This document shows positions 5,437-42,130 of a stretch of 49,857 bases of DNA, one piece after another (the first letter of the stretch is position 1; every line of letters begins with the position of its first letter). Under the pieces are notes generated by a model. The model worked only from the letters and a program-made list of their open reading frames with translations, ran no database searches and was not told the origin of the DNA. The stretch lies in the sequence record OQ680139.1. One strand, given 5' to 3'. A program made the position numbers and the translations under genes. The DNA is from Escherichia phage PH1062.

Positions 5437-8343
5437 TTACGCTCCTGCTTTTCCGTTGATGTAATTGTAAACTTCGCCACCCTGGGAACATGATTCCTGA
5501 ATCATTTGCTTGAAAATCATTTTCACGCCCTGCTCCATGCCCTTCGGATCGCTACCGTTATTGATGCTAACAGGGATGCTACCAATTGTCACGCCGCCAG
5601 CCATGATTGCACTACCGCCGCCACCGCTTGTTGTTCCACCAACCACGCCGCCATTAGCATAACCGCGCATCATTCGATAAAGGTTATCGACGCCAATTCG
5701 CTTGGTAGCTTCCTTGGTCATGACAAACTCACCTTTATGAACCGTGCCTGCTGGCTCATACTTGCCGCCATCTCCGGTGTAACCGCCAGTGGCGAACCAC
5801 CCTGAGTTAGCGAAAGAGAATCCCTTGCCGCTGCCTATTCCCATTCCTGATAGTGAGTTAAAGATTACCATCTGCGTGATCATCTTAATGATCTGGCTGA
5901 TAATGCTTTTTGCAAAGTCTGCAAAGTTGGCCTGCCCCGTCATCAAGAACTCAGTCATCATGTCTGTCAAACCGTTCAGGGCGTTACTTGCGATATTTTC
6001 TACGTTTCCGTACATATCCATAGCACTCTCGCCGTAGTCCGCAAATGCTTTCTGCGCCCCAGCAAGCCAGTCTCCGCGCTTCTCATCCTCGTTGGCGTAA
6101 TACTCGTTCTGCTTGTCAATCATTTTCTTGAGCGCTTCATCATCCTGACCGCCGCCCTTAGCCATGTACTCCGCTCGGATCTTCTCAAGCTGAATCTGGC
6201 GCTCTGCCTCAAGTGTACCCATGGCGCGCGTGGCGTTAAGGCTTTTGCTCGCTGCGTCAATCTGCATGATGAACTTCATTGAGTCGTCATTCAGTTTGTT
6301 GATCTGCTCCTGCTTAACAATCTGATCACCAAGCTCTGCCTTTTCCTTCGCCAACGAGAGCACCTTTTGCTGACTGGCAAGCAATGCTTTTTCCTCGTTG
6401 GTCAGCTTACGCTTACTCTGTGCATCCTGGAGGATTGAAATCTGAGCCTCAGTAGCCCACAAAGCACGGCGCTGGCTTGAGATCTTGTCGTTAATCGACT
6501 TGTGATCTTCCAAAACTTTAAGCTGAGCTTTGAGAACGTAAAGTTCTTTATCAAGCTGCTCGGTAGCGCCCTTGGTTACTGCGCCGTTGCTCTTAGTTTT
6601 CTTCCGGTTCTTTTCCTCAATTTCTTTAGCTTCCTTCGCTACGGCTTCCTTTGTTTCCTTGGCGTATTGCTTCTCAAGATCACGTCGGCCCTTAAGCGCA
6701 TTGATGTAACCCATCTCGCCCTTTTCGACTCTCGCGTTAATAACATCCAGATCTTTTGCAAGGCTGTCGTAGGTGTCCTTGGAGTTCTTAACGATAGTCT
6801 GCTGTTCGTTGAGAATATCCTTACCGAAATCACTCATACCTGGCAGGCTTTGCGTGGCCTTGATTGCAGAGGCGATAAAGTTAGAAATGTATTCGTCACC
6901 CTTGGCGAGAATCATTTTAACCTGAATCACCGTGCCGCTAACCACATCAATGATGAGGTTTAGAGCACCAAGCGTATGATCTCCAACCCACCCCCAGGCG
7001 TCTGATGACCATTTCTTAATGTCATTCCACATCTTTTCAAGCGGCGTTGCAGTACCTGCAATCTTGCTCATGCGTTCTTCCATGGTGTCGGCAAACAGCT
7101 TGGTCGCCTCCGTCACAGCTTCGGTTTCGCCCTTGGCTTTAACAATCCCGTTAATGTAGGTCAATTGACCTTTCTCAAGGAAGTTGTATTGCTCGTTCAG
7201 CTTCGCCAGTCCTTTTACCGGATCATCTGCAATCTTGCCGAAGTCACTGATAATATCGCTCGTCGCTCGACCCGTTGCGGCTGACCATTCAGCGGTAGCG
7301 CGGGTAATATTCCTGATTTGGTCCTGAGTGTACTTACCACTTTTCGCAAGCTCAGTAGCAATTTCTCGCACAGATCCGATAGTCGCGTTGCTGGTATCCG
7401 CAATTTTGTTTGCAATCTGGTCAAGGTCCGCCGCGCTCGCCGCTGCAAATCCGCCAGTCTCAATCAAGGCGTTTTTCATATCTGTGATGGAGCGGTAGGA
7501 GTCGTAACCAGCTTTAGCAAGGCCAGCAAGTGCGATACCCATAGCGCCCATACCAACCGTTACCGGATTAAGGTAAGAAAGCAAAACTTTAAACGTATTC
7601 CCAACACCGCCGAACGAATCCTTGATCTGCCCGCCCTGCTGGATTGCAACCAGCCATACAGGCATACCGGAAGCAAGGGAGGTAACAACGTCAGTGATCT
7701 GCATTGGCAAGATGCGCAGCGCGTTCTTGTACTCGCCAGCGGAAAGGCCAGCCGCATTTGTCGCTACAGTCTGCTTGTTCATCGCTGCAATTAAAGGTGC
7801 GGCCTGAGTCGATACGCCAAGCTGTGCCGCCTTCAATTCGAGAAGCTCAGTCTTGGTCATTGTCGCAGCGTTAGCTTGTTCTTGCAGTGATTTAAGGAAC
7901 CTGTCAGCGTCCTTTGTTGCCGCCTCTTTGGCTTTTGAGTTAGCCATAGCCGCACGGCCTTCTTCGGTCAGCGCCATCTTGGATCGGTTAAGCGCATTGA
8001 TCTGAGTTTCAATCATGCTTGACAGATTGAAGAACTCGGCGTCTGGAACGAGGCCTTTACTCCAGAGGTTATCCAGGTCAACGCTCGCCTTCTGCAACTG
8101 GCGCATTTTTCCGATTGTAGGATCAATGGCTTTCTCTACGTCGGCAAATTCTTTCTTCTGGCGCTTAACCTCGTTGTTGAACTCTTTCATCTTCTGCTTT
8201 GCTACTTGCTCAGCATCAATGAAATTGTCAAAGCTCTTTCCGGCTGTGTTGTTCGCCCTGGATAAGTCATCCAGAGATTTAACCGCCGCATCAACCTGGG
8301 ATACGTCAACCCCAAGCGATAGCCCTGCAAATTTATCTGTCAT
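5437..8343 (-). CDS. Tail tape measure protein
   Basis: 968 aa, long coiled-coil-rich sequence with Gly-rich C-terminal segments; follows the G/G-T chaperone pair. Confidence 0.85.
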
Positions 8344-9008: not shown

Positions 9009-9053
9009 TGTTTTTTCCTCTTTGTTTGAATTGGTGATATTAAATCACAAATA

Positions 9054-9075
9054 GAAAAAGGGGGCAATAGCCCCC
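9054..9075 (-). terminator. Intrinsic terminator after major tail protein gene
   Basis: GGGGGC-tatt-GCCCCC plus T-run on the minus strand. Confidence 0.6.
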
Positions 9076-9080
9076 TTGCA

Positions 9081-11817: not shown

Positions 11818-12771
11818 TTACTTACCTACGCCAACCAGCATGATGATAGTCAGCGGTCGATAAACGATCAGACCAGTAGTTTTAGAAGTGCACGGGACTT
11901 TAAAGTGCAAATCCTTAGCCTGCATCGGGAGCATATTGAAAGATTCCGGGATCTCGATGCTCATGTTCATTGGGTCTTTCTCATACGCCAGAACAGCTTT
12001 AGTGCCTGCACCGTCGATATCTTCCAGTTCGGAGATGGAAGAGATGGTGATGCCACCGTTCTGAGACTTGAACCAGTCCAGATAGCTCATCGTGGTTTCC
12101 GGCATACGCTTAGCGAGCAATTTACGCTGGGACGGCGGGATAACGATGTCGGTGATTTTATGCTGACCATTGGTCAGGGTTTCCATCTTCTCGATCAGGT
12201 CGGTCAGTTCTTCGCTTGCTTTCTCTGCATCAGCCCATGCGCCAGTAGCGGAGGTTACGCGGGTGATGTTCGGATGGTCGAAAACAGAGATGATTTTGTG
12301 AGGCTTTGAGCCTTTGAAAACCAACTGGTTAACCAGAGTTTCGTGACCTTCGCGCGCCAGAGTGGCTTTACGATCCGACAGGCTTGAACCAAGTGCCGCA
12401 CCAGTTTTAATCTCGTCGATAGAGATCAGCCACGCGTTACCGAGGCGGTGAACTCGACCAGATTCCAGACTGTGAGTAGCGTCAACAGTTGGCAGGTCGT
12501 CGGTGTAGTCAGCGATAATCTTCGCCATGGTCACGCCGTCAAACTTGAGATATTCGAACAGGTTAGCGGTCGGGCTAATCTCAGTAGTGACAGGGAACAG
12601 AGCCAGCGCGGAGGTTTCAGGGTAAGCCGCTTCATACTGGCGCTTAAGCAACTGAGTCATCTGTTTGACAGTCCAGATGCCAAGCTGGTCGGCTTTGTTG
12701 CCGCTTACGCCAAGCTGGCGCATACCATTAGTGATCATATTCTGTTCGAAAGCGTCGAGTTTCATAGTCAT
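11818..12771 (-). CDS. Major capsid protein
   Basis: 317 aa; size and position after protease/scaffold and decoration genes. Confidence 0.7.
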   Translation of the reverse strand: MTMKLDAFEQNMITNGMRQLGVSGNKADQLGIWTVKQMTQLLKRQYEAAYPETSALALFPVTTEISPTANLFEYLKFDGVTMAKIIADYTDDLPTVDATHSLESGRVHRLGNAWLISIDEIKTGAALGSSLSDRKATLAREGHETLVNQLVFKGSKPHKIISVFDHPNITRVTSATGAWADAEKASEELTDLIEKMETLTNGQHKITDIVIPPSQRKLLAKRMPETTMSYLDWFKSQNGGITISSISELEDIDGAGTKAVLAYEKDPMNMSIEIPESFNMLPMQAKDLHFKVPCTSKTTGLIVYRPLTIIMLVGVGK

Positions 12772-12823
12772 AATTTGTTTTCCTTTGTTTGTTAGAAAGC
12801 CGTGATTAAGTTCACGGCTCTAT

Positions 12824-12842
12824 AATAGCACTTTTTGTTAAG
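12824..12842 (+). promoter_or_regulatory. Copy of the 19 bp family element in reverse orientation relative to the capsid gene
   Basis: AATAGCACTTTTTGTTAAG on the plus strand, ~55-70 nt upstream of the minus-strand capsid start. Confidence 0.45.
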
Positions 12843-12865
12843 CGCGCAATAGATTTTTATGCATT

Positions 12866-12885
12866 AAAAAAGGGGCCGAAGCCCC
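12866..12885 (-). terminator. Intrinsic terminator after decoration protein gene
   Basis: GGGGC-ttcg-GCCCC plus T6 on the minus strand. Confidence 0.6.
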
Positions 12886-12894
12886 GTAATTTAA

Positions 12895-13506
12895 TTAAGC
12901 CGCCGCGCCAGGGTCGCCCTTGTCACCTTTTGGACCTTGCGGACCAGTATCACCTTTATCGCCTTTCGGACCTTGAGGGCCAGTGTCACCTTTTGGACCT
13001 TGCGGACCAACAACGGGAGCACCAGCAGATTGAAGCAACTGAATCTGAACGAGATCATATGTAGCATCATCAGATGATAACTTCTGACCAGTAAATTTAT
13101 AACCAGTTGCAATATCGCCATCTCGAGCAACTACGCCATCTGAGTTAAACAATACCTGCTTGCCGTAAGAGTAATCGTCATCAAGTAAACCAGCCTTAAC
13201 GACAGGAACCCATACGCGACCATGTGTAAGAACGTTTACAGCAATTCCGTCTTCATATTCACCACTTGCAGAGTATGCGTGGCTCATAACTGAAACGCCA
13301 ATCAATGGTAGAGAACTGTCAGTAGCAACCTTGACTACTTTGTGCCCGTCAACGGCTTGTACTTCACTCACTGCGAGAAGTCGCCCGACAGGGATTGAAC
13401 CATCAGCCGCGCAAGCCCCGTCAACATTGTAAAGGGAGGTGTCTGCGATTTGACCAGCATACGCTTTAGCGCGATGTACTGTGTAAGAAGCTTTGATTAG
13501 TGCCAT
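12895..13506 (-). CDS. Putative capsid decoration protein with C-terminal collagen-like Gly-X-Y repeats
   Basis: 203 aa ending VGPQGPKGDTGPQGPKGDKGDTGPQGPKGDKGDPGAAA; lies between scaffold and capsid genes. Confidence 0.55.
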   Translation of the reverse strand: MALIKASYTVHRAKAYAGQIADTSLYNVDGACAADGSIPVGRLLAVSEVQAVDGHKVVKVATDSSLPLIGVSVMSHAYSASGEYEDGIAVNVLTHGRVWVPVVKAGLLDDDYSYGKQVLFNSDGVVARDGDIATGYKFTGQKLSSDDATYDLVQIQLLQSAGAPVVGPQGPKGDTGPQGPKGDKGDTGPQGPKGDKGDPGAAA

Positions 13507-14699: not shown

Positions 14700-15479
14700 T
14701 TATGTGATTAATTGTGATTGTTTGCTGGTTGACATATCTGGAATTGCCCAGCATCGGCAACCGTAAGGCTCACCAGGGAACGGGTGATCGCTTGAGATCT
14801 CAATGCGTTTACCTTCCCATTTCACGTGCTGCAATCGCTCGCGCTCATCCAGTTTACCATGCCAGAAATAGTGAGTTACTCCCGCATCATCCAGGCGCTG
14901 GCGCATCAGTACGCTGTTCCAGGTGGACACAATTCCACGCGAGCGATTCACGGTCCAGCCAGTATACACCTTGTATCGCTGCTTTAAAACTTCATCAATC
15001 TGCTGACTGGTTTTATTGCGCACGTTTTCGACGCGAATGTTTTGCGACCAGTCAGAGATGATGTCTCTCGCTAACTTTAAAATACTCGCCTCAGCCGAAC
15101 CGCGCCATTGCGATGACTTCTCGCGATACCATGACTCATTGGCATTCGCCCCCAGCACCCCAAGCAAGATTACAGACTGGTTCTTTCCGCCACCTGCTTT
15201 CTTTGCCACGTTGAGAAATTGCTTTGAGTTGAATTTATAAATAGTCAGCGCCAGCGACGGAAGTGTAGCAACAATCGCCGCGATAAGTCCGGATGCATAT
15301 TCCTCTAGCTCACTTTCTGCATCATTTATTTCTTCGTCCGAAGCGTCGAATCTCATACCGCCAGTAAGCGATCTGGCTTTCTTTGCCACCTCGCCAGCGA
15401 ATGTTGACAATGAGCGGCTAAGTTGCCGCTCGCTTGCTTCGGGATAACTCCATTGATTTACAATGCCGTTAACCTTCAT
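14700..15479 (-). CDS. Head morphogenesis protein (SPP1 gp7 / Mu F-like)
   Basis: 259 aa directly downstream of portal gene. Confidence 0.55.
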   Translation of the reverse strand: MKVNGIVNQWSYPEASERQLSRSLSTFAGEVAKKARSLTGGMRFDASDEEINDAESELEEYASGLIAAIVATLPSLALTIYKFNSKQFLNVAKKAGGGKNQSVILLGVLGANANESWYREKSSQWRGSAEASILKLARDIISDWSQNIRVENVRNKTSQQIDEVLKQRYKVYTGWTVNRSRGIVSTWNSVLMRQRLDDAGVTHYFWHGKLDERERLQHVKWEGKRIEISSDHPFPGEPYGCRCWAIPDMSTSKQSQLIT

Positions 15480-15481
15480 GA

Positions 15482-16756
15482 TTATTCCTCGTTGTTCACC
15501 TGCGGGTTAGTCGGTTCGATTTCAAGCTCCGGCGCTGGGCCTTGAATCTTGATAAAGTCTGCGATTGCCTCAAGTGTATCACGCGCCTCGTCACGGTCAA
15601 TGACCTGATCCGCCAATAGCTTTGAGATTGACTCAACGTTATTCTTCAACGTCTCGGATTGTTCTTTCTCGCTTGGCATTGATAGTGGCTCGAATCGAAC
15701 TGACCATTCCTCTTCCTGCACAATCATAGGAATTAACCACTCCAGAAGCGGCCTGTAATACTCGTTACGCTTGCGGTCAATCATCTTGTAGAAAGTCTCA
15801 AGCGCTGTGTTCTGGCTCGCTGACACGCCGCCTACGTTCTTATTCTTGAGGATAATCTCATGAATCTGTGAGTAGTTAACGATGCGGTCCATCTTCTTAT
15901 CAAGGAAAGCATCAACGCCGCCAATGTCAGAGTTAAGAACGTCGTATTCTTCGTCAGTGGCATCAATGCCAATAGTCCTTCCTACGCCGCTGTTATCATC
16001 AACCTGCGCAAGTCGAAGCCGTGCTGCGTAACGACCTTCGTCATCGTCGCACAAATCCGCCAACCCTTTAGCTTTCCATACGCCCTGCTGCTTACGGCGC
16101 AATAGCTGTGTGGCAAGTTCTTCGCAGTAGTTGTAGTCCAAAATGGCATCAATCAATCCCTTGCTCAACACCGATGCGCCCCATTCGTTATTTTGCGCAC
16201 GAATTGAGTTAGGCAATCGCTCGCCAGAGTTAACATAGACTCTCGTGTAGTGAACATCGTATTCCGGTACGCCTCCGCCAGGGTTGATGGTATAAATCTT
16301 CGGCATGCCATAGCGAGGGTTGCGCGCGTTCTTCTCTCGGTCCTTGATGCGAATCTGCTCTTTTTCGTATACGCGGATTGATTCAAGCTGAGCACCTTCC
16401 TTGATTGGTGATGTCAGGAGTCGGTTGTCACGGACGACGGCGACGATGGCGGAACCACCATAAAGCCGCTCCCATGAGAACGCCTCGACAATCTGCTTGT
16501 TCAGCTTCATGCCATCCCACAAAGATTTGAACGCCTTCTCATCCTTCACCCCGTCCAGGCCGAATCCAGGGAAAACCATTTCCTCTGGAATAACATCGAC
16601 AATTTTCTTAGCCATAGGATCATCAATGTAAAACTGCGTCACATACATCTGATCGTATAGCGATGCAAGCGCGCCTCCTGCCGTACCTTCACCCTTAAAC
16701 GTCTTGTTGTAAGAGTCGGTCTTAACGCTTTTTTTACTCATCTGTTTTTCTCCCAA
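15482..16756 (-). CDS. Portal protein
   Basis: 424 aa; position after terminase large subunit. Confidence 0.8.
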   Translation of the reverse strand: MGEKQMSKKSVKTDSYNKTFKGEGTAGGALASLYDQMYVTQFYIDDPMAKKIVDVIPEEMVFPGFGLDGVKDEKAFKSLWDGMKLNKQIVEAFSWERLYGGSAIVAVVRDNRLLTSPIKEGAQLESIRVYEKEQIRIKDREKNARNPRYGMPKIYTINPGGGVPEYDVHYTRVYVNSGERLPNSIRAQNNEWGASVLSKGLIDAILDYNYCEELATQLLRRKQQGVWKAKGLADLCDDDEGRYAARLRLAQVDDNSGVGRTIGIDATDEEYDVLNSDIGGVDAFLDKKMDRIVNYSQIHEIILKNKNVGGVSASQNTALETFYKMIDRKRNEYYRPLLEWLIPMIVQEEEWSVRFEPLSMPSEKEQSETLKNNVESISKLLADQVIDRDEARDTLEAIADFIKIQGPAPELEIEPTNPQVNNEE

Positions 16757-16784
16757 TAAAAAAGGCTAGGTTGTTAGCCTAGCC
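16757..16784 (-). terminator. Hairpin plus T-run between HNH gene and portal gene
   Basis: GGCTAGG-ctaacaa-CCTAGCC followed by T6 on the minus strand. Confidence 0.5.
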
Positions 16785-16797
16785 ATTATACATGAGT

Positions 16798-17346
16798 TTA
16801 GCAATTCTCGCTATCCTTGCCGTGGTTTGTGTGATACCCAAGCTCATGCTCCGCGCTCTTCCTTGCGCAAACCGCATCAAACCAGTCATTATACCTGCCA
16901 AGATTTTTGTTCTTTCCGTCATCACCCATTATGCAAGCCATCCACATTTCATCGCGAGAATACCATGTAACACCTACGCAACCGCTTTTATTCCTTTTTG
17001 ATATTGAAAGGTTTCTGTTGTTTCCTCTATAGCTTTTAAGTTCAAGGTTTTCTATCCTATCATCATCTCTTACGTGGTTTATATGATCAATAACAAACCC
17101 TTTTGGAACGCTGGCTGCATTATTGTGAATACACCACACAATATGTGATCGTGGTATTTTCTTTTCAATACCTCCAATTGTAATCCACACATACCAGTAT
17201 CCGTTTGATTTATCTAGGTATCCAGCAGTATTGCCAACCATCCTATTAAACGCGTGATATGCACTCCTTTTACTAAAATCACTTTCTGGCCTTCCATTCC
17301 AGAAAACCTCTCCGCTTTTGTATGTAAAAATATCGCTGAATCTCAC
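16798..17346 (-). CDS. HNH homing endonuclease with AP2-type DNA-binding domain
   Basis: IDHINHVRDDDRIENLEL then NKSGCVGVTWYSRDEMWMACI; paralogous to 20784..21302 and 40529..41077. Confidence 0.75.
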   Translation of the reverse strand: MRFSDIFTYKSGEVFWNGRPESDFSKRSAYHAFNRMVGNTAGYLDKSNGYWYVWITIGGIEKKIPRSHIVWCIHNNAASVPKGFVIDHINHVRDDDRIENLELKSYRGNNRNLSISKRNKSGCVGVTWYSRDEMWMACIMGDDGKNKNLGRYNDWFDAVCARKSAEHELGYHTNHGKDSENC

Positions 17347-17396
17347 CTTAACACCTCATTAACTTTATTTATCTACACTAAATTATACAAAGCACG

Positions 17397-19007
17397 CTAA
17401 GGCGTGTTTTGACTTTTAGTGCTTTTCCTGAGTCCTGCGAGTTTTTTCATTCGTGCTACCGGATCATCAAGCAAGTTCATTTCGAAGTTTCCAGCATCAA
17501 CCACGTTATCCACTATATCATCGTGAGGATGGCTATCATCAAAGGTGAAGCCTACCAGTTCCGCTTCCATTTCAGTAAGCATTGGGTGAGATTCAGGAAA
17601 AACGATTCGCCCTGCTTTCATGATTGGTGCTGCGTCCATTGCACGCGTAACCTTGTCGGTATCTCGCTGCACTGGCGTGATGTCAATCGGGAGCTTCTTG
17701 TTAATTGACTGGATCAGGCCCGTACCGCTCGCTTTGTCTTCAATGTAAACCTTGCGTAATGACGTCTTGTTCTCCTTCGCCCACTTAAAGCAGTTGCCAT
17801 AAAAGTTAAGGGCCATCGTCTCAAGGTCCGGCGCTTCCCACTTACCGCGAATGCCGTCGATGAAATATACGCGATCCTTATACTTGCCCCACAAAACAAA
17901 GACGCTGTAGTCGTGAATTTCCTCGGCCTTCTGCGCAGTATCCGCAGTGGTAAAAAGGTATTCGAAGCGATCCGGTTTTGGCATATTGGCTTTCTCGCCG
18001 TCGCCGTAATACTGGAACCAGTCCGACTTAAACGCATTGCCACCAAGCGCAATGGGCTTCTGCTGATACTGAGACTCGAAGGTGTACAGGTCAGCTTCGC
18101 GCAACGCCAGTAGGCTTTCTGCGCTCTCCTTCGCGGGCCAGAAAGAGAAGTGCTCAACCCCGTCAATCATTACCGATGGGGACGATAGCACGTCTCTGTC
18201 AAATTCCTCTTTCAACCAGTCAGGAAGCGTGTCTCTGTATTCCTCAGTTACCAGCGCCGGAATGATTACCTGCTCAAACTTCATGCCACCCATACCTCCA
18301 TTCATCAGGAACCAAGTCGCATCGTTTACGTGTAGCCGCTGCTGGACAACAACGCATGGTGTCTTGTCATTCATTCTTCGCGATCGAACGGTGTTCTTTA
18401 ACAGCGTATGACCAGCCTTTCTCTTTACTGCTGAGTATAGGTCTTTCGGCTTCTCAGGGTCATCAAGCGTCAGCATACCAGTGAAGCCATCATCCATATA
18501 TCCACCACGCTTACCAGTTACCTGACCACCTATGGCTCGCGATGTTAACGTCAGCCACGCCTTGTCATTACTGTTTAGCGCTGTAATGTCTCCTCCTGAA
18601 GCCTTTGCTAGTTTGCAAGGCCATAACTCCTGGAACTCGTCAGATCCTATAATTTCACGAGTCCTGATCCCGTTGTCCTTAACAAGGCTATCTGAGAATG
18701 AAAGGTTCAGATTCCTTATCTTCTCACTCCTGAACATGCAATACACTGGCATGTGTATAGAAAAGATCTCAGTTTTGCCAGATCCGGGTGTGATATTGAA
18801 TATGATGTTTTGTATATCACCATTGATTATTTGCTCAACCTTCCAGCAAAGGTAGTTGAAATGCCAGTTCGACCTAAACTTTTGAGCCTGTATCAAAGCA
18901 AACCATATCTTCATGAAGTTATTAAATGAGTCCTCGCTCATTACCTTTATCACCGCCTTCTCTTTCTCCGTTAGGTTTTCCCATATCAAAATGTCTTTAC
19001 TAGCCAT
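17397..19007 (-). CDS. Terminase large subunit
   Basis: 536 aa; P-loop-like ITPGSGKTE, acidic C-terminal nuclease region; follows small subunit. Confidence 0.85.
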   Translation of the reverse strand: MASKDILIWENLTEKEKAVIKVMSEDSFNNFMKIWFALIQAQKFRSNWHFNYLCWKVEQIINGDIQNIIFNITPGSGKTEIFSIHMPVYCMFRSEKIRNLNLSFSDSLVKDNGIRTREIIGSDEFQELWPCKLAKASGGDITALNSNDKAWLTLTSRAIGGQVTGKRGGYMDDGFTGMLTLDDPEKPKDLYSAVKRKAGHTLLKNTVRSRRMNDKTPCVVVQQRLHVNDATWFLMNGGMGGMKFEQVIIPALVTEEYRDTLPDWLKEEFDRDVLSSPSVMIDGVEHFSFWPAKESAESLLALREADLYTFESQYQQKPIALGGNAFKSDWFQYYGDGEKANMPKPDRFEYLFTTADTAQKAEEIHDYSVFVLWGKYKDRVYFIDGIRGKWEAPDLETMALNFYGNCFKWAKENKTSLRKVYIEDKASGTGLIQSINKKLPIDITPVQRDTDKVTRAMDAAPIMKAGRIVFPESHPMLTEMEAELVGFTFDDSHPHDDIVDNVVDAGNFEMNLLDDPVARMKKLAGLRKSTKSQNTP

Positions 19008-20783: not shown

Positions 20784-21302
20784 TTACACCTTTAATTTTC
20801 TTCCATGGTTTACATGGTAACCAAATTCAATTTCAGCACTAAGCCTAGCAGCCACCGCATCATCGAAGTTATTGAAATACCCAAGACTGATTGCCTTTCT
20901 ATCCTTTGAAATTACCGCCTTCCACTTCTTATCCCTGCTCTGCCATGACACTCCAGTTACACCGCTTTTGTTTCTAACGCTCCTTGATTGATTCATGCCG
21001 TTTTCGATATGCGTAACAAGCCTTAAATTTTCCATCCTGTTATCTGACCTACTGTGGTTTATATGATCAATCTGCATCCCTTCTGGTATTCTCCCCATTA
21101 CAGACTCCCATATAATCCTATGAGCCAAGTAAAGCCTATTTTCAAACCTAACCTTTATATAACCATCTCTTTTGCACTTGCATCCAGCTACCGATCCGAC
21201 AACTACCTTTCTGCTTAATTTAAATGCCCATATTAGGTCGCCGCTTGACTCATCATATGAAAGGTAATCATTTATATCAATCATAAATACATTCTCCATC
21301 AT
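20784..21302 (-). CDS. HNH homing endonuclease with AP2-type DNA-binding domain
   Basis: IDHINHSRSDNRMENLRLVTHIENG then NKSGVTGVSWQSRDKKWKAVI. Confidence 0.75.
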   Translation of the reverse strand: MMENVFMIDINDYLSYDESSGDLIWAFKLSRKVVVGSVAGCKCKRDGYIKVRFENRLYLAHRIIWESVMGRIPEGMQIDHINHSRSDNRMENLRLVTHIENGMNQSRSVRNKSGVTGVSWQSRDKKWKAVISKDRKAISLGYFNNFDDAVAARLSAEIEFGYHVNHGRKLKV

Positions 21303-21652: not shown

Positions 21653-21865
21653 TCATTCTTCAATCACCTTATATTCATTTTCGCTAATGCTGATTTCGTT
21701 GCCAACATGCACAAACTCTGTTTCACGGATAGCCTGGATTGAAAGGTCGCCGTCCTTGTATTTACCTGACACTTCAACCACGTCTCCGACTTTGAAGCCA
21801 CAATCTTCCAGAGTAAGAGCGTCGTCATCAGTGATATAGTTAACGTCGATAATTTCAATTTTCAT
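21653..21865 (-). CDS. Hypothetical protein
   Basis: 70 aa; AGGAAGCAGAAATG RBS-start right after family promoter A. Confidence 0.55.
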   Translation of the reverse strand: MKIEIIDVNYITDDDALTLEDCGFKVGDVVEVSGKYKDGDLSIQAIRETEFVHVGNEISISENEYKVIEE

Positions 21866-21895
21866 TTCTGCTTCCTCGTTCGTTTCGATGGGGTA

Positions 21896-21940
21896 ACTAT
21901 ACCGCTACCCCGATTCTGAGTTTTAACAAAAAGTGCTATC
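21896..21940 (-). promoter_or_regulatory. Family promoter A: 20 bp element, 19 bp spacer, TATAGT
   Basis: Sense strand AATAGCACTTTTTGTTAAAA; -10 sits in the loop of inverted repeat GGGGTA/TACCCC; followed by CCCATCGAAACGAA. Confidence 0.55.
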
Positions 21941-22293: not shown

Positions 22294-22339
22294 ACTATAA
22301 CAAAACCCGCCGGAGCGGGTTTAGCAATTCGTGCTATTT
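22294..22339 (-). promoter_or_regulatory. Family promoter B: element, hairpin spacer, TATAGT
   Basis: AAATAGCACGAATTGCTAAA; spacer holds CCCGC-tccg-GCGGG plus TTTT; element overlaps the TAA stop of 22338..22955. Confidence 0.55.
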
Positions 22340-24731: not shown

Positions 24732-24918
24732 TTTTTAACCCCTTAACCTGACATGCTGTTCCTGTTCGGATGGCTGTTACTAAAAGAGTGAACACTGTAG
24801 CCTGGCTTATAGCCTTAAGCCATCGACCATGTTTTGGGTAGTAGACGTATCCAGTTCCACACGATACGGCGTACCATAAGCTACCTCGTCTGAAAACTAT
24901 TGGCTTCAACGGAATCAT
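24715..24918 (-). CDS. Hypothetical protein
   Basis: 67 aa ORF overlapping both neighbours at start/stop. Confidence 0.3.
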   Translation of the reverse strand: MIPLKPIVFRRGSLWYAVSCGTGYVYYPKHGRWLKAISQATVFTLLVTAIRTGTACQVKGLKNASLH

Positions 24919-25304
24919 AAGTAACCCTTCCCTACAGTTTCTCCAACTTCACGTGATGCCTTTAACTTGTTCCAGAAATCGAACGGGCCGACTGGCTCCC
25001 ATGCTTTCGGTTTGCCTGGCTCATTCCACCAACCGAGAACTGCCGCACTGCCGTAGCATGAATCCATCTGGCGACCGTCGCTGAAATAGCTTTTGAATAC
25101 GCGATTCAGTTCATCACCGCCAACCTTGATTGAGTTAGCTTGAGACTCAATTCCATATTTCTTCTCTAACTCCGTAGGCTCATCAATGAACCCCTCCACA
25201 ACGATCGGGTAAGAACCAGGATCGCGTGGGTTAGTCTCTTTCGGATGGAGCTTGAAGTATTCAAGCTCGGCATAGATGCTAGGGTTAAGTAAACGTACTT
25301 TCAT
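24915..25304 (-). CDS. Hypothetical protein
   Basis: 129 aa; ~43 nt after promoter E -10. Confidence 0.6.
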   Translation of the reverse strand: MKVRLLNPSIYAELEYFKLHPKETNPRDPGSYPIVVEGFIDEPTELEKKYGIESQANSIKVGGDELNRVFKSYFSDGRQMDSCYGSAAVLGWWNEPGKPKAWEPVGPFDFWNKLKASREVGETVGKGYL

Positions 25305-29145: not shown

Positions 29146-29410
29146 CAGCGTGATATGCGTACATGATTCCTACGGAGTGCTGGTGTGTCTACATGGCATA
29201 ACATGCATAACGCGTATGCGCTAGAAACGTGTGGCGGGAAAGTCCTACCAGGAGATCAAGGGATCAGATCTCACCCCATCATTCCCCCCATCAATGAATC
29301 ATTGCTCAATTCGCAACAATCGAAAACATCATTGCAAACGATGCAATATTGCTATATGTGCAATAGTGAAGTGAATTATTGCAATAGCTGCAACAATCCA
29401 TAAATCGAAC

Positions 29411-30039: not shown

Positions 30040-30066
30040 AGCCCTTCGGGGCTTTTCCTGTATATT
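30022..30066 (+). promoter_or_regulatory. Family promoter J (rightward): element, terminator-like hairpin spacer, TATATT
   Basis: AATAGCACGAATTGCTAAA; spacer GCCC-ttcg-GGGC plus TTTT; followed by CATCCCATCGAAACGAA; 36 nt to ATG 30103. Confidence 0.55.
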
Positions 30067-30102
30067 CATCCCATCGAAACGAAACACAAAAAGGCAAACA
30101 AA

Positions 30103-36062: not shown

Positions 36063-36107
36063 AGTATACCCGCGCGGCGGCGGGTATGTTTAGCAATTCG
36101 TGCTATT
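36063..36107 (-). promoter_or_regulatory. Family promoter L: element, 20 bp hairpin spacer, TATACT
   Basis: AATAGCACGAATTGCTAAA; spacer ACCCGC-cgccgc-GCGGGT; element overlaps TAA stop of 36106..36342. Confidence 0.5.
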
Positions 36108-37337: not shown

Positions 37338-37376
37338 TTTGATTTCCTTGGTTGGTTACTTCGTTTCGATGAAGTG

Positions 37377-39931: not shown

Positions 39932-39968
39932 AGTATTAAATGCCTTTCATGTTCGTTCGATTGACGTT

Positions 39969-40012
39969 ATAATAACAACCATCGAAACCAATGTTTAACA
40001 AAAAGTGCTATT
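39969..40012 (-). promoter_or_regulatory. Family promoter N: element, 18 bp, TATTAT, upstream of helicase operon
   Basis: AATAGCACTTTTTGTTAAAC; lies in the divergent region between helicase and 40024..40497. Confidence 0.5.
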
Positions 40013-40023
40013 GAGGTGATAAA

Positions 40024-40497
40024 ATGAATGCAACTGATAAGCGTACTCTTAACGGTAACAACGGAACTATCCGCACGGAAGATAAGAAGCAGCGTAAGCG
40101 ACCGTCAGGTTACTATGTTCTCAAGGATGAAGTAAAGGCCGGATTAAGAGCGCGACTTGATATTGTATTTGAGTTCTACGGCAGCAAGGCGAATATGGCG
40201 AAGCAATTAAAAGTTACTCGCCAGGCGGTCGAAGAATGGTTTAAGCGTGGCATGATGTCGGCACGCGGCGCTCAACTGGCGCACAACAGATATAAGCGAA
40301 CTGGCGAAGGGTTCCGCGCTACATTCTGCCGACCGGATTTGCAATTCGACGGCAACGGTAAACCGCTGACACTGCGTTGCAAAAAGCGTCACATGCTGCG
40401 CGTCGTCACCGAGGCTGAACTAGCCACTAAGCCTGAATGTCGCTCATGGCGAAAAATTAAAGCAGCAAACGAAGCAGCACGAAAAGCTAAAGAATGA
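40024..40497 (+). CDS. Cro/YdaS-like helix-turn-helix DNA-binding protein (putative regulator)
   Basis: 157 aa; YGSKANMAKQLKVTRQAVEEWFKRGMMSARGAQLAH resembles Cro/YdaS HTH; basic termini. Confidence 0.5.
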   Translation: MNATDKRTLNGNNGTIRTEDKKQRKRPSGYYVLKDEVKAGLRARLDIVFEFYGSKANMAKQLKVTRQAVEEWFKRGMMSARGAQLAHNRYKRTGEGFRATFCRPDLQFDGNGKPLTLRCKKRHMLRVVTEAELATKPECRSWRKIKAANEAARKAKE

Positions 40498-40528: not shown

Positions 40529-41077
40529 CTATCTATCTCCGTCACACCCAAACTCACCATGATAATAATTACTGGCTTTTAAGTACGCTTCACGCGCCGA
40601 CTCCTTTGTGGTATGCCTTCCTAGCCATATTTTTTTATTATTAACCCATATCCACGCCGTGTACTTCCCTGTTTGCTTGCAGAATCCAACGCCTTTTACT
40701 CCTGATGTATTGTGAGATGGTTTTTTCATATTTCTATTGTTCTCAGATGATGACGCTTCCCTTAGGTTTTCTATCCTATTATCAGTCCTGATCCCGTTTT
40801 TATGATCTATATACTTAGAAGGCCATTCACCTTTACAAAGCGCCCATGAAACCCTATGGCATTTAACGTCGAATCCGAAAAATCTGAAAACCTTATAACC
40901 AGATTTATGGACCGTTCCGGCCTCATCTCCAGCCTTAACCCTATTAGATGTGCTTTTTACCCAAATTATAACTCCGTTGTCGTATTTAAGGTAATTCCTA
41001 AGCATATCAATACTAATCAATGACTCTTTTGCCTTCATTAAATCAAAGTCTTTGCTCATTTCATTTTCCTCATTCAT
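40529..41077 (-). CDS. HNH homing endonuclease with AP2-type domain (start may be Met at ~41059)
   Basis: YIDHKNGIRTDNRIENLREASSSEN then SGVKGVGFCKQTGKYTAWI; minus-strand gene inside a plus-strand block. Confidence 0.75.
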   Translation of the reverse strand: MNEENEMSKDFDLMKAKESLISIDMLRNYLKYDNGVIIWVKSTSNRVKAGDEAGTVHKSGYKVFRFFGFDVKCHRVSWALCKGEWPSKYIDHKNGIRTDNRIENLREASSSENNRNMKKPSHNTSGVKGVGFCKQTGKYTAWIWVNNKKIWLGRHTTKESAREAYLKASNYYHGEFGCDGDR

Positions 41078-42076: not shown

Positions 42077-42105
42077 TTGCAAGACTCATAACACAATGAT
42101 AAAAT
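42077..42105 (+). promoter_or_regulatory. Sigma70-like promoter TTGCAA-17-TAAAAT for side tail fibre gene
   Basis: Predicted start site falls at the first nt of the inverted family element 42111-42130. Confidence 0.45.
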
Positions 42106-42110
42106 CTATG

Positions 42111-42130
42111 TTTAGCAATTCGTGCTATTT
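42111..42130 (-). promoter_or_regulatory. Family element in reverse orientation at the tail fibre promoter (operator-like position)
   Basis: TTTAGCAATTCGTGCTATTT on the plus strand between two plus-strand genes; ends 19 nt before ATG 42149. Confidence 0.45.

Follow-up and report, generated by a model that had tools for sequence, protein, structure and literature searches.

The window analysed here is the whole 49,857-nt stretch of Escherichia phage PH1062 (OQ680139.1), and the site under study is a 19-mer, AATAGCACTTTTTGTTAAG, in the gap between its cement/decoration gene and its major capsid gene. The locus around the 19-mer is 93-96% identical to the E. coli phages TH21, P817 and GaoY1-9D, with ESCO41, T1 and the Klebsiella weberviruses as more distant relatives, and these relationships place the window among the T1-like phages of the Drexlerviridae. 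An Rfam search of 12400..13300 gave no match. The locus contains the following features, in order of coordinate:

11818..12771, minus strand: major capsid gene (Pfam Major_capside, E=4e-46)
12769..12787, minus strand: capsid ribosome-binding site (RBS; AAAGGAA) and start codon (ATG 12771..12769)
12798..12819, minus strand: hairpin AGCCGTGA-acttaa-TCACGGCT, -14.3 kcal/mol, 8-9 pairs, 1-2 nt past the -10
12815, minus strand: predicted capsid transcription start, a G, 7 nt past the -10 (placed by geometry alone)
12822..12830, minus strand: extended -10 TGcTATTAT (TG 12830..12829, hexamer TATTAT 12827..12822)
12824..12842, plus strand: the flagged 19-mer AATAGCACTTTTTGTTAAG
12825..12844, plus strand: marbox-like site, 20 bp
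12828..12842, plus strand: 15-bp core GCACTTTTTGTTAAG, at about -13 to -27 of the predicted capsid promoter
12844..12849, minus strand: -35-like hexamer TTGCGC, 3/6 to consensus, 16 nt upstream of the -10
12851..12858, minus strand: A-tract ATAAAAAT, directly upstream of the -35 (CAYAAAAA in relatives)
12866..12885, minus strand: intrinsic terminator of the cement gene, GGGGCTTCGGCCCC followed by T6 (stem 12885..12872)
12895..13506, minus strand: cement/decoration gene, upstream of the capsid gene (Pfam Phage_cement)

The cement/decoration protein ends in C-terminal Gly-X-Y collagen-like repeats, and the 3' part of its gene matches decoration genes of Klebsiella phages as well as tail-fibre genes from phages that are not related.

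On the capsid strand, the order of elements between the two genes is gcATAAAAATcta-TTGCGC-g-CTTAACAAAAAGTGC-TATTAT-ag-AGCCGTGAacttaaTCACGGCT-ttctaacaaacAAAGGAAaacaaattATG. The 16-nt spacer, the TG of the extended -10 and the TAT of the -10 hexamer all come from the motif read in reverse complement, in which its ATAGCA end becomes TGcTAT. In other words, the predicted sigma-70 promoter of the major capsid gene has the 19-mer as one strand of its core, and the overlap with that promoter which had been proposed by an earlier, sequence-only reading is borne out: the 19-mer coincides with the spacer, the TG extension and the first three bases of the -10. This -10 has what a sigma-70 extended -10 calls for (A at position 2, T at position 6 and TGn before it), and the A-tract looks like a UP element. 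A promoter scan of the window did not call the capsid promoter, whose own -35 is weak (3/6). In relatives, the -35 is TTGACG, TTGACC, TTGCAC or TTGAAC (4-5/6 to consensus), and the scan of T1 and ESCO41 did call TTGACG or TTGACC-N16-TATTAT with the TG, at 10/12 matches. In phage Chapo, these 28 nt carry a promoter annotation from the depositors, who also marked the hairpin that follows as a terminator.

The conservation set consisted of 33 representatives with more than 12% divergence over 105 nt. The capsid layout is kept in 26 of the 33, down to approximately 57% capsid identity, and the flanks and the sequence of the hairpin vary. The shared layout runs from a stop codon through CAYAAAAA, TTG(A/C)(A/C)C, one base, TTTA(A/G)CAAAAA(G/A)TGC and TAT(C/T/A)(A/T)T to a hairpin (in most) and the RBS, and the -10 is TATTAT, TATCAT or TATATT in all 26 representatives that carry the reverse site with at most one mismatch. 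Across this wide divergence, core identity in conserved capsid spacers is 15/15. Such conservation goes beyond what a plain promoter needs, which argues that something reads the spacer. The Klebsiella weberviruses retain the promoter (TTGACG ... TGaTATTCT) but have a decayed site with 2-3 mismatches, so some lineages can do without the site.

The hairpin at 12798..12819 covers the predicted start with its 5' arm, has the tail TTTCT and was not called as a terminator by the scan; the corresponding tails are T5-T7 in T1 and several other genera, and the hairpin is an annotated terminator in Chapo and in TLS (T35). Most lineages have a capsid hairpin of -11 to -15 kcal/mol that begins 0-3 nt past the -10, with differing stem sequences and often a T-run after it. 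Because the predicted start falls within the 5' arm, it is conceivable that read-through could be stopped without stopping the capsid gene. Transcripts arriving from upstream would contain the whole hairpin, and those from the capsid promoter (starting at approximately 12815) would not, so the hairpin could, on inference alone, block read-through yet spare capsid transcripts.

Several positional claims of the sequence-only reading can be settled directly. It had described the 19-mer as a reverse-oriented member of a repeat family, and this holds: the sequence is found exactly at 12824..12842 (+), and the window contains seven matches to it at up to three mismatches versus 0.02 expected, an excess over chance that confirms the observation. 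Its placement of the site between the preceding terminator (12885..12866) and the capsid RBS is also correct. The site is indeed upstream of the capsid start (55-70 nt in that reading): the 19-mer is 53-71 nt upstream of the minus-strand capsid ATG (12771), in the orientation opposite to the capsid gene. The description of it as the only copy in the structural block applies to the TTT-subtype 19-mer and not to the family as a whole, which has degenerate forward copies there at 16797(-), 17408(-) and 2915(-). The family itself was underestimated, as the seven copies found with the 19-mer become approximately 20 when the GAA subtype, ATAGCACGAATTGCTAAA, is added. Finally, the remark that a tail-fibre copy likewise opposes its gene is accurate for the copy at 42110..42128 (-); the 29412(+) copy is co-directional with its genes.

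The repeat family has reportedly been on record since the T1 genome paper. Of the 13 copies in T1, two are reversed within the late region; these precede the major head gene and the tail chaperone gene, respectively. A re-annotation of phage TLS describes 21-nt direct repeats, aaATAGCACnnnTTGnTAAAA, numbered DR1-DR18, which fall into AAA, TTT and GAA subgroups and are also present in T1, Rtp and Rogue1 (PMC11447400). The TLS repeats lie along the direction of transcription, approximately 76 nt before start codons, and its authors left their function undecided between a stoperator, an enhancer site and a UP element (PMC11447400). In Table S1 of that paper, DR7 is assigned to the negative strand (15044..15024), immediately ahead of hairpin T35, without comment (PMC11447400), and by position and strand DR7 appears to be the counterpart of our flagged copy. 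The two belong to the same sequence family: AATAGCACTTTTTGTTAAG has one mismatch to the TLS-type consensus (its final G, so that it ends in AAG, not AAA), and relatives have the perfect form. Its distance to the start codon is near the TLS rule, but its orientation is not the one that the rule describes, an exception that DR7 seems to share. Both the repeat family and a copy on the negative strand have thus been published before, but the TLS paper is silent on the reversed copy as such, on its placement in the capsid promoter and on the marbox match described below. In the literature that we searched, we did not find the reversed copy in a conserved capsid promoter core, the marbox identity or the parallels to micF and rob.

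What the family does in its usual orientation is clearer from the other copies. The window has 20 matches to ATAGCACNNNTTGYTAAA at up to two mismatches versus 0.26 expected, and 15-mers of the GAA subtype (the 'G' group of TLS) start at 22320, 25374, 27190, 27462, 29648, 30026, 34076, 36089, 37403, 42111 and 47861. Approximately 17 copies in the window are co-directional with genes: each is followed after 19-21 nt (mostly 20) by a TATAGT/TATAAT-like hexamer, then an RBS and the gene, with an extended -10 (TGnTATAGT) and no -35. For quantification, sites were pooled from the window, T1 and 80 related loci retrieved by capsid protein. TAnnnT occurs at offset 20 in 71% of the 158 distinct forward sites and at almost none of them at adjacent offsets. 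Logos in which no selection was made on the half under measurement show ATAGCAC at 97-100% and TTG at 90%, after which come C (58%) or T (36%) and TAAAA; further on, forward sites have T at 75% and G at 89% in positions -15/-14, the -10 TATAGT and the conserved start region CATCGAAACGAA. On account of the fixed offset and the logos, we read the forward copies as predicted extended -10 promoters that have no -35 and instead carry a conserved site centred near -41.

Some other readings of the motif were tried and set aside. The flanks of the other family copies yield no -10 for reverse promoters, the motif's TTGYTA lies 22 nt from the -10 and so does not fit as a -35, and a comparison by eye with the consensus sites of IHF, Fis and CRP gave no fit.

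If forward copies drive transcription in their own direction, the flagged copy might be a working plus-strand promoter, giving antisense RNA across 12895..13506 or interfering with capsid transcription, as the sequence-only reading implied. The motif is intact, its TG is correctly placed (TGcATTAAA), and reversed chaperone-gene copies of T1 and several genera do have TGnTAnnnT at offset 20. At the capsid site, however, the plus-strand hexamer at that offset is ATTAAA in the window (without A at position 2 or T at position 6), TAAGCG in ESCO41 and TATACA in T1, and TAnnnT is present there in 7% of 14 capsid-type copies versus 71% of the forward sites. The promoter scan made no plus-strand call at the flagged site, and the conserved TTTTTRTG is accounted for by the other strand, where it corresponds to the capsid A-tract and to the stop codon of the upstream gene. 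With no usable plus-strand -10 at the fixed offset, we reject an antisense promoter at this site as very improbable.

A second reversed copy in the window also lies at a promoter, as these two features show:

42077..42105, plus strand: tail-fibre promoter TTGCAA-N17-TAAAAT, called by the scan
42110..42128, minus strand: second reversed copy ATAGCACGAATTGCTAAAC, at about -2 to +17 of the tail-fibre promoter

Both reversed copies in the window therefore overlap predicted sigma-70 promoters of genes for abundant late structural proteins, whereas the forward copies stand in for a -35 that is absent. The tail-fibre promoter of Chapo is likewise combined with a reversed motif. The reversed copy before the chaperone gene of T1, which is absent from the corresponding part of the window (9009..9080), is downstream of TTGCAC-N17-TAAAAT. 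This T1 copy (18833..18851) has TGnTAnnnT at offset 20, with equivalents in five related loci approximately 3.65 kb downstream of the capsid ATG. Copies of this type may be genuine antisense promoters facing the major tail gene, and since they keep TGnTAnnnT at offset 20, antisense promoters are possible elsewhere in the family.

The conserved site of the forward promoters resembles a known host element. MarA, SoxS and Rob (and RamA in Klebsiella) are monomeric activators that recognise an asymmetric site, the marbox, for which Martin et al. (1999) are said to have given the 20-bp form AYnGCACnnWnnRYYAAAYn. The Grainger laboratory's version of the MarA site is GCAnnWWnTGnnAAA, likewise asymmetric, and class II sites are forward and overlap the -35 (PMC12052159). 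The window contains 18 perfect matches to GCAnnWWnTGnnAAA versus 0.9 expected, of which 16-17 are copies of the family and one is probably due to chance. The flagged copy matches this core consensus at 14/15 positions and the longer form, taken as AYnGCACnnWnnRYYAAAY, at 18/19. The positions at which the phage motif varies (the TTT/GAA/AAA triplet and the C/T) are degenerate positions of the marbox, but the phage motif is far more uniform than host marboxes and fixes positions that are free in them. It is also asymmetric. The ATAGCAC half is 97-100% conserved and the dyad partner position is C (58%) or T (36%), so that a G at 100% on one side faces C/T on the other, and there are A-runs at both ends on the same strand. 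One invariant half, one C/T half and same-strand A-runs together argue against a symmetric dimer site.

The geometry of the forward copies agrees as well. The RamA structure paper gives the class II micF site at approximately -41 with the pattern CACT-7X-AAA (PMC8811837), and the phage motif has this pattern. In E. coli K-12 micF, GCACTGAATGTCAAA ends 20 nt before the -10 TAGAAT, with the annotated +1 next. Forward phage copies thus agree with micF and other class II sites in core consensus, in being centred near -41 and in the 20 nt that separate them from the -10, and by sequence and geometry the repeat is a match to the marbox. The flagged copy, in contrast, has the opposite orientation and is nearer to the start by 20 bp, which makes it a class II site for neither strand. 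Our literature search found no paper that links the marbox, MarA, SoxS or Rob to T1-like phages.

A simpler explanation would dispense with a regulator altogether: the repeat could be an RNA-polymerase element (UP-like, or an alpha-CTD contact), and the capsid spacer would be alike through shared ancestry of a promoter module. A UP element is among the options of the TLS authors (PMC11447400), the motif is A/T-rich, and forward sites lie where alpha-CTD binds. But a UP element would have no role in a spacer or at +1..+19, where the reversed copies are nevertheless conserved (with a 15/15 core), and the invariant GCAC and TTG are not UP-like. We consider this explanation improbable.

A transcription-factor operator within a promoter is a known kind of element, and a single protein can have opposite effects depending on the position of its site, as lambda CI at OR and phi29 p4 do. 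The dual activator/repressor logic of those systems is like the one proposed below, but they use proteins of the phage itself, at sites that have no sequence relationship to this one. Closer parallels come from marbox-type sites in host promoters. The E. coli rob promoter (...CACTGAATGCTAAAACAGCAAAAAATGCTATTATcc...) has a core, CAGCAAAAAATGCTATTAT, that is identical at 17/19 positions to the capsid core of ESCO41, TAACAAAAAATGCTATTAT. It shares with the capsid promoter a reversed marbox-like site, an ATAGCA end that makes TGcTATTAT, and an upstream A-tract; it differs in belonging to a host gene and in having a degenerate promoter-distal end (GTT for AAA). Schneiders and Levy (2006) reportedly placed the rob marbox between the -35 and the -10, in the backward orientation. 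The rob gene is repressed by MarA and SoxS (PMC12282887). At pbpG, a marbox within the promoter spacer leads to repression (PMC12052159); this site and the capsid copy are both of the marbox type and in a spacer, a likeness of placement. The opposite effect is seen at the sigma-28 promoter flgBP2, which MarA activates from a reverse-oriented site at -16..-30 by distorting base pairing (PMC12781870). Both flgBP2 and the capsid promoter have a reversed MarA-type site in the core promoter, next to the -10, but flgBP2 is sigma-28-dependent and opens poorly, whereas the capsid promoter is a predicted sigma-70 extended -10 promoter. Given the predicted promoter and start, the flagged core (reversed, at about -13..-27) falls into the same core-promoter-overlapping class, whose members are either repressed (pbpG, rob) or activated (flgBP2).

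Our preferred reading, to which we give a probability of roughly 0.5, is that the flagged copy is an operator inside the capsid promoter, probably a repressive one, to which host MarA, SoxS or Rob would bind. The sequence, the family, the geometry, the conservation and the likeness to micF and rob are observations, and from there we infer the protein binding, the identity of the host factor and the repression. At approximately 17 promoters, a forward site near -41 replaces the -35, which is the geometry of a class II activator. A factor that activates these early and middle promoters would, at the capsid gene, occupy the promoter between the -35 and the -10 and so hold it down. Repression is favoured because the capsid promoter is near consensus in most relatives and because of the pbpG and rob precedents, but the sign of the effect is uncertain because a reversed MarA site activates flgBP2; as a less likely alternative, the factor might help to open the capsid promoter. 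With either sign, capsid expression would be regulated apart from the rest of the programme. Points against this reading are the weak -35 and the missing scan call in the window, the AAG end of the flagged copy, the decayed site of the weberviruses, the uniformity of the phage motif, the Cro-like regulator encoded throughout the Drexlerviridae and the persistence of the motif in a phage recorded from Vibrio cholerae.

The same operator logic would also work with a different binder, for which the window encodes one candidate:

40024..40497, plus strand: Cro-like regulator, T1 ST23 family (phrog_2856; in 824 phage records)

The gene for this conserved regulator occurs in every Drexlerviridae genome, where it adjoins a motif copy. 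The protein combines a basic N-terminal arm with one Cro-type HTH domain (model pLDDT 88), and the best fold matches of the model are the Cro proteins of Xfaso 1 and N15. It could be this protein that activates the forward promoters and occupies the capsid and tail-fibre promoters, in which case the likeness to the marbox would be convergence or mimicry. Its N-terminal and HTH residues are invariant and the motif is likewise unchanged between genera, its gene adjoins a motif copy, and a core dyad (TAGCA-N5-TGCTA) can be read in the motif. In TLS, P57 (one of only three consensus sigma-70 promoters) is beside DR11, by T1 synteny in what should be the divergent region between regulator and helicase, so that synthesis of the regulator could come first. 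Both motif and regulator are retained in Vibrio phage Vc1. Against this, a single Cro-type HTH resembles dimeric Cro proteins but the site is strongly asymmetric, most promoters of the genome would need a protein that is absent at injection, and the marbox match, the micF spacing and the rob core would all have to be coincidence. We regard the Cro-like regulator as a possible but rather unlikely binder, and favour host factors because the site is asymmetric and agrees with the marbox in consensus, with micF in spacing and with rob in its core.

Vc1 (NC_054898.2) has 12 perfect 15-mers versus 1.2 expected and the same capsid promoter (5690..5760). Its recorded host is Vibrio cholerae, which may point to a phage-encoded binder, a Vibrio marbox-binding protein or a doubtful host label. 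No co-variation between the capsid-site and forward-site consensus, as might be expected from a co-evolving phage factor, was found across genera: forward sites are alike in all of them, and the capsid sites of weberviruses are merely decayed. No AraC-family protein was found by Pfam among 50 ORFs of the window, a point in favour of a host factor. A phage-encoded MarA-like protein was also sought with tblastn, using MarA and SoxS as queries, and rejected, as the best hit had E=0.12 (ORF 24915..25304) and no Pfam or PHROG support.

Two further regions near motif copies are of note with respect to the Cro-like regulator. At 29330..29395, where the early genes on the minus strand meet the plus-strand block and a short way upstream of the copy at approximately 29413, there are TGCAATA / TATTGCA repeats including the palindrome GCAATATTGC. 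This cluster could be an operator cluster for the regulator, or a replication origin. In the divergent region between the helicase gene (-) and the regulator gene (+), 39932..40023, the predicted -10s overlap (TTATAA / TATAAT), and the motif copy is downstream of the regulator's predicted start, approximately 10 nt before its ATG.

A broader proposal, which we offer tentatively, is that T1-like phages may run most of their transcription via consensus host marboxes. Activators of the MarA/SoxS/Rob type would turn on approximately 17 extended -10 promoters from class II positions, and the same proteins would sit in the strong capsid and tail-fibre promoters. If so, the timing and yield of the phage would be tied to how the host responds to antibiotics, oxidative stress and bile, and timing could follow the decay or titration of short-lived host factors after infection. 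If the repeats are marboxes, a very common group of enteric phages, among them T1, TLS and the Klebsiella weberviruses used in therapy work, would read the regulators of efflux-mediated antibiotic resistance, with the capsid promoter as the negative arm of the circuit. If the Cro-like protein binds instead, its operator would have been identified and a dual activator/repressor layout revealed. The TLS authors put forward the stoperators of mycobacteriophage L5 as an analogue of the repeats (PMC11447400); those are also many asymmetric genome-wide sites, but they are unrelated in sequence, lie in transcribed regions of a temperate phage and have a phage-encoded binder.

The forward promoters have some further regularities. 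CATCGAAACGAA lies approximately 7 nt past the -10 at many of them (e.g., 21860-21875, 37340-37355 and 30085-30100) and could be an initial transcribed sequence or a 5' UTR signal. Within the 20-nt gap between motif and -10, terminator-like G+C-rich hairpins with a T-run are found at 22300-22320, 30041-30060, 36069-36088 and 17388-17407. At 21922, 24500, 25374 and 26184, the -10 is enclosed by an inverted repeat whose sequence varies and whose right arm falls between the -10 and +1. A third geometry of the motif is found in the portal promoter region (16750..16815, minus strand), where a degenerate forward motif, ATAGCGAGAATTGCTAAA, is just 6 nt from TATAAT, past which come the hairpin AGGCTAacaaccTAGCCT with T6 and then an RBS. 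Copies of this portal type are present in many genera, approximately 4.3-4.7 kb upstream of the capsid ATG.

The window also has three HNH endonuclease genes lying between conserved genes, all on the minus strand (20784..21302, 40529..41077 and 16798..17346). Two of the three have AP2 DNA-binding domains, and all are probably homing endonucleases.
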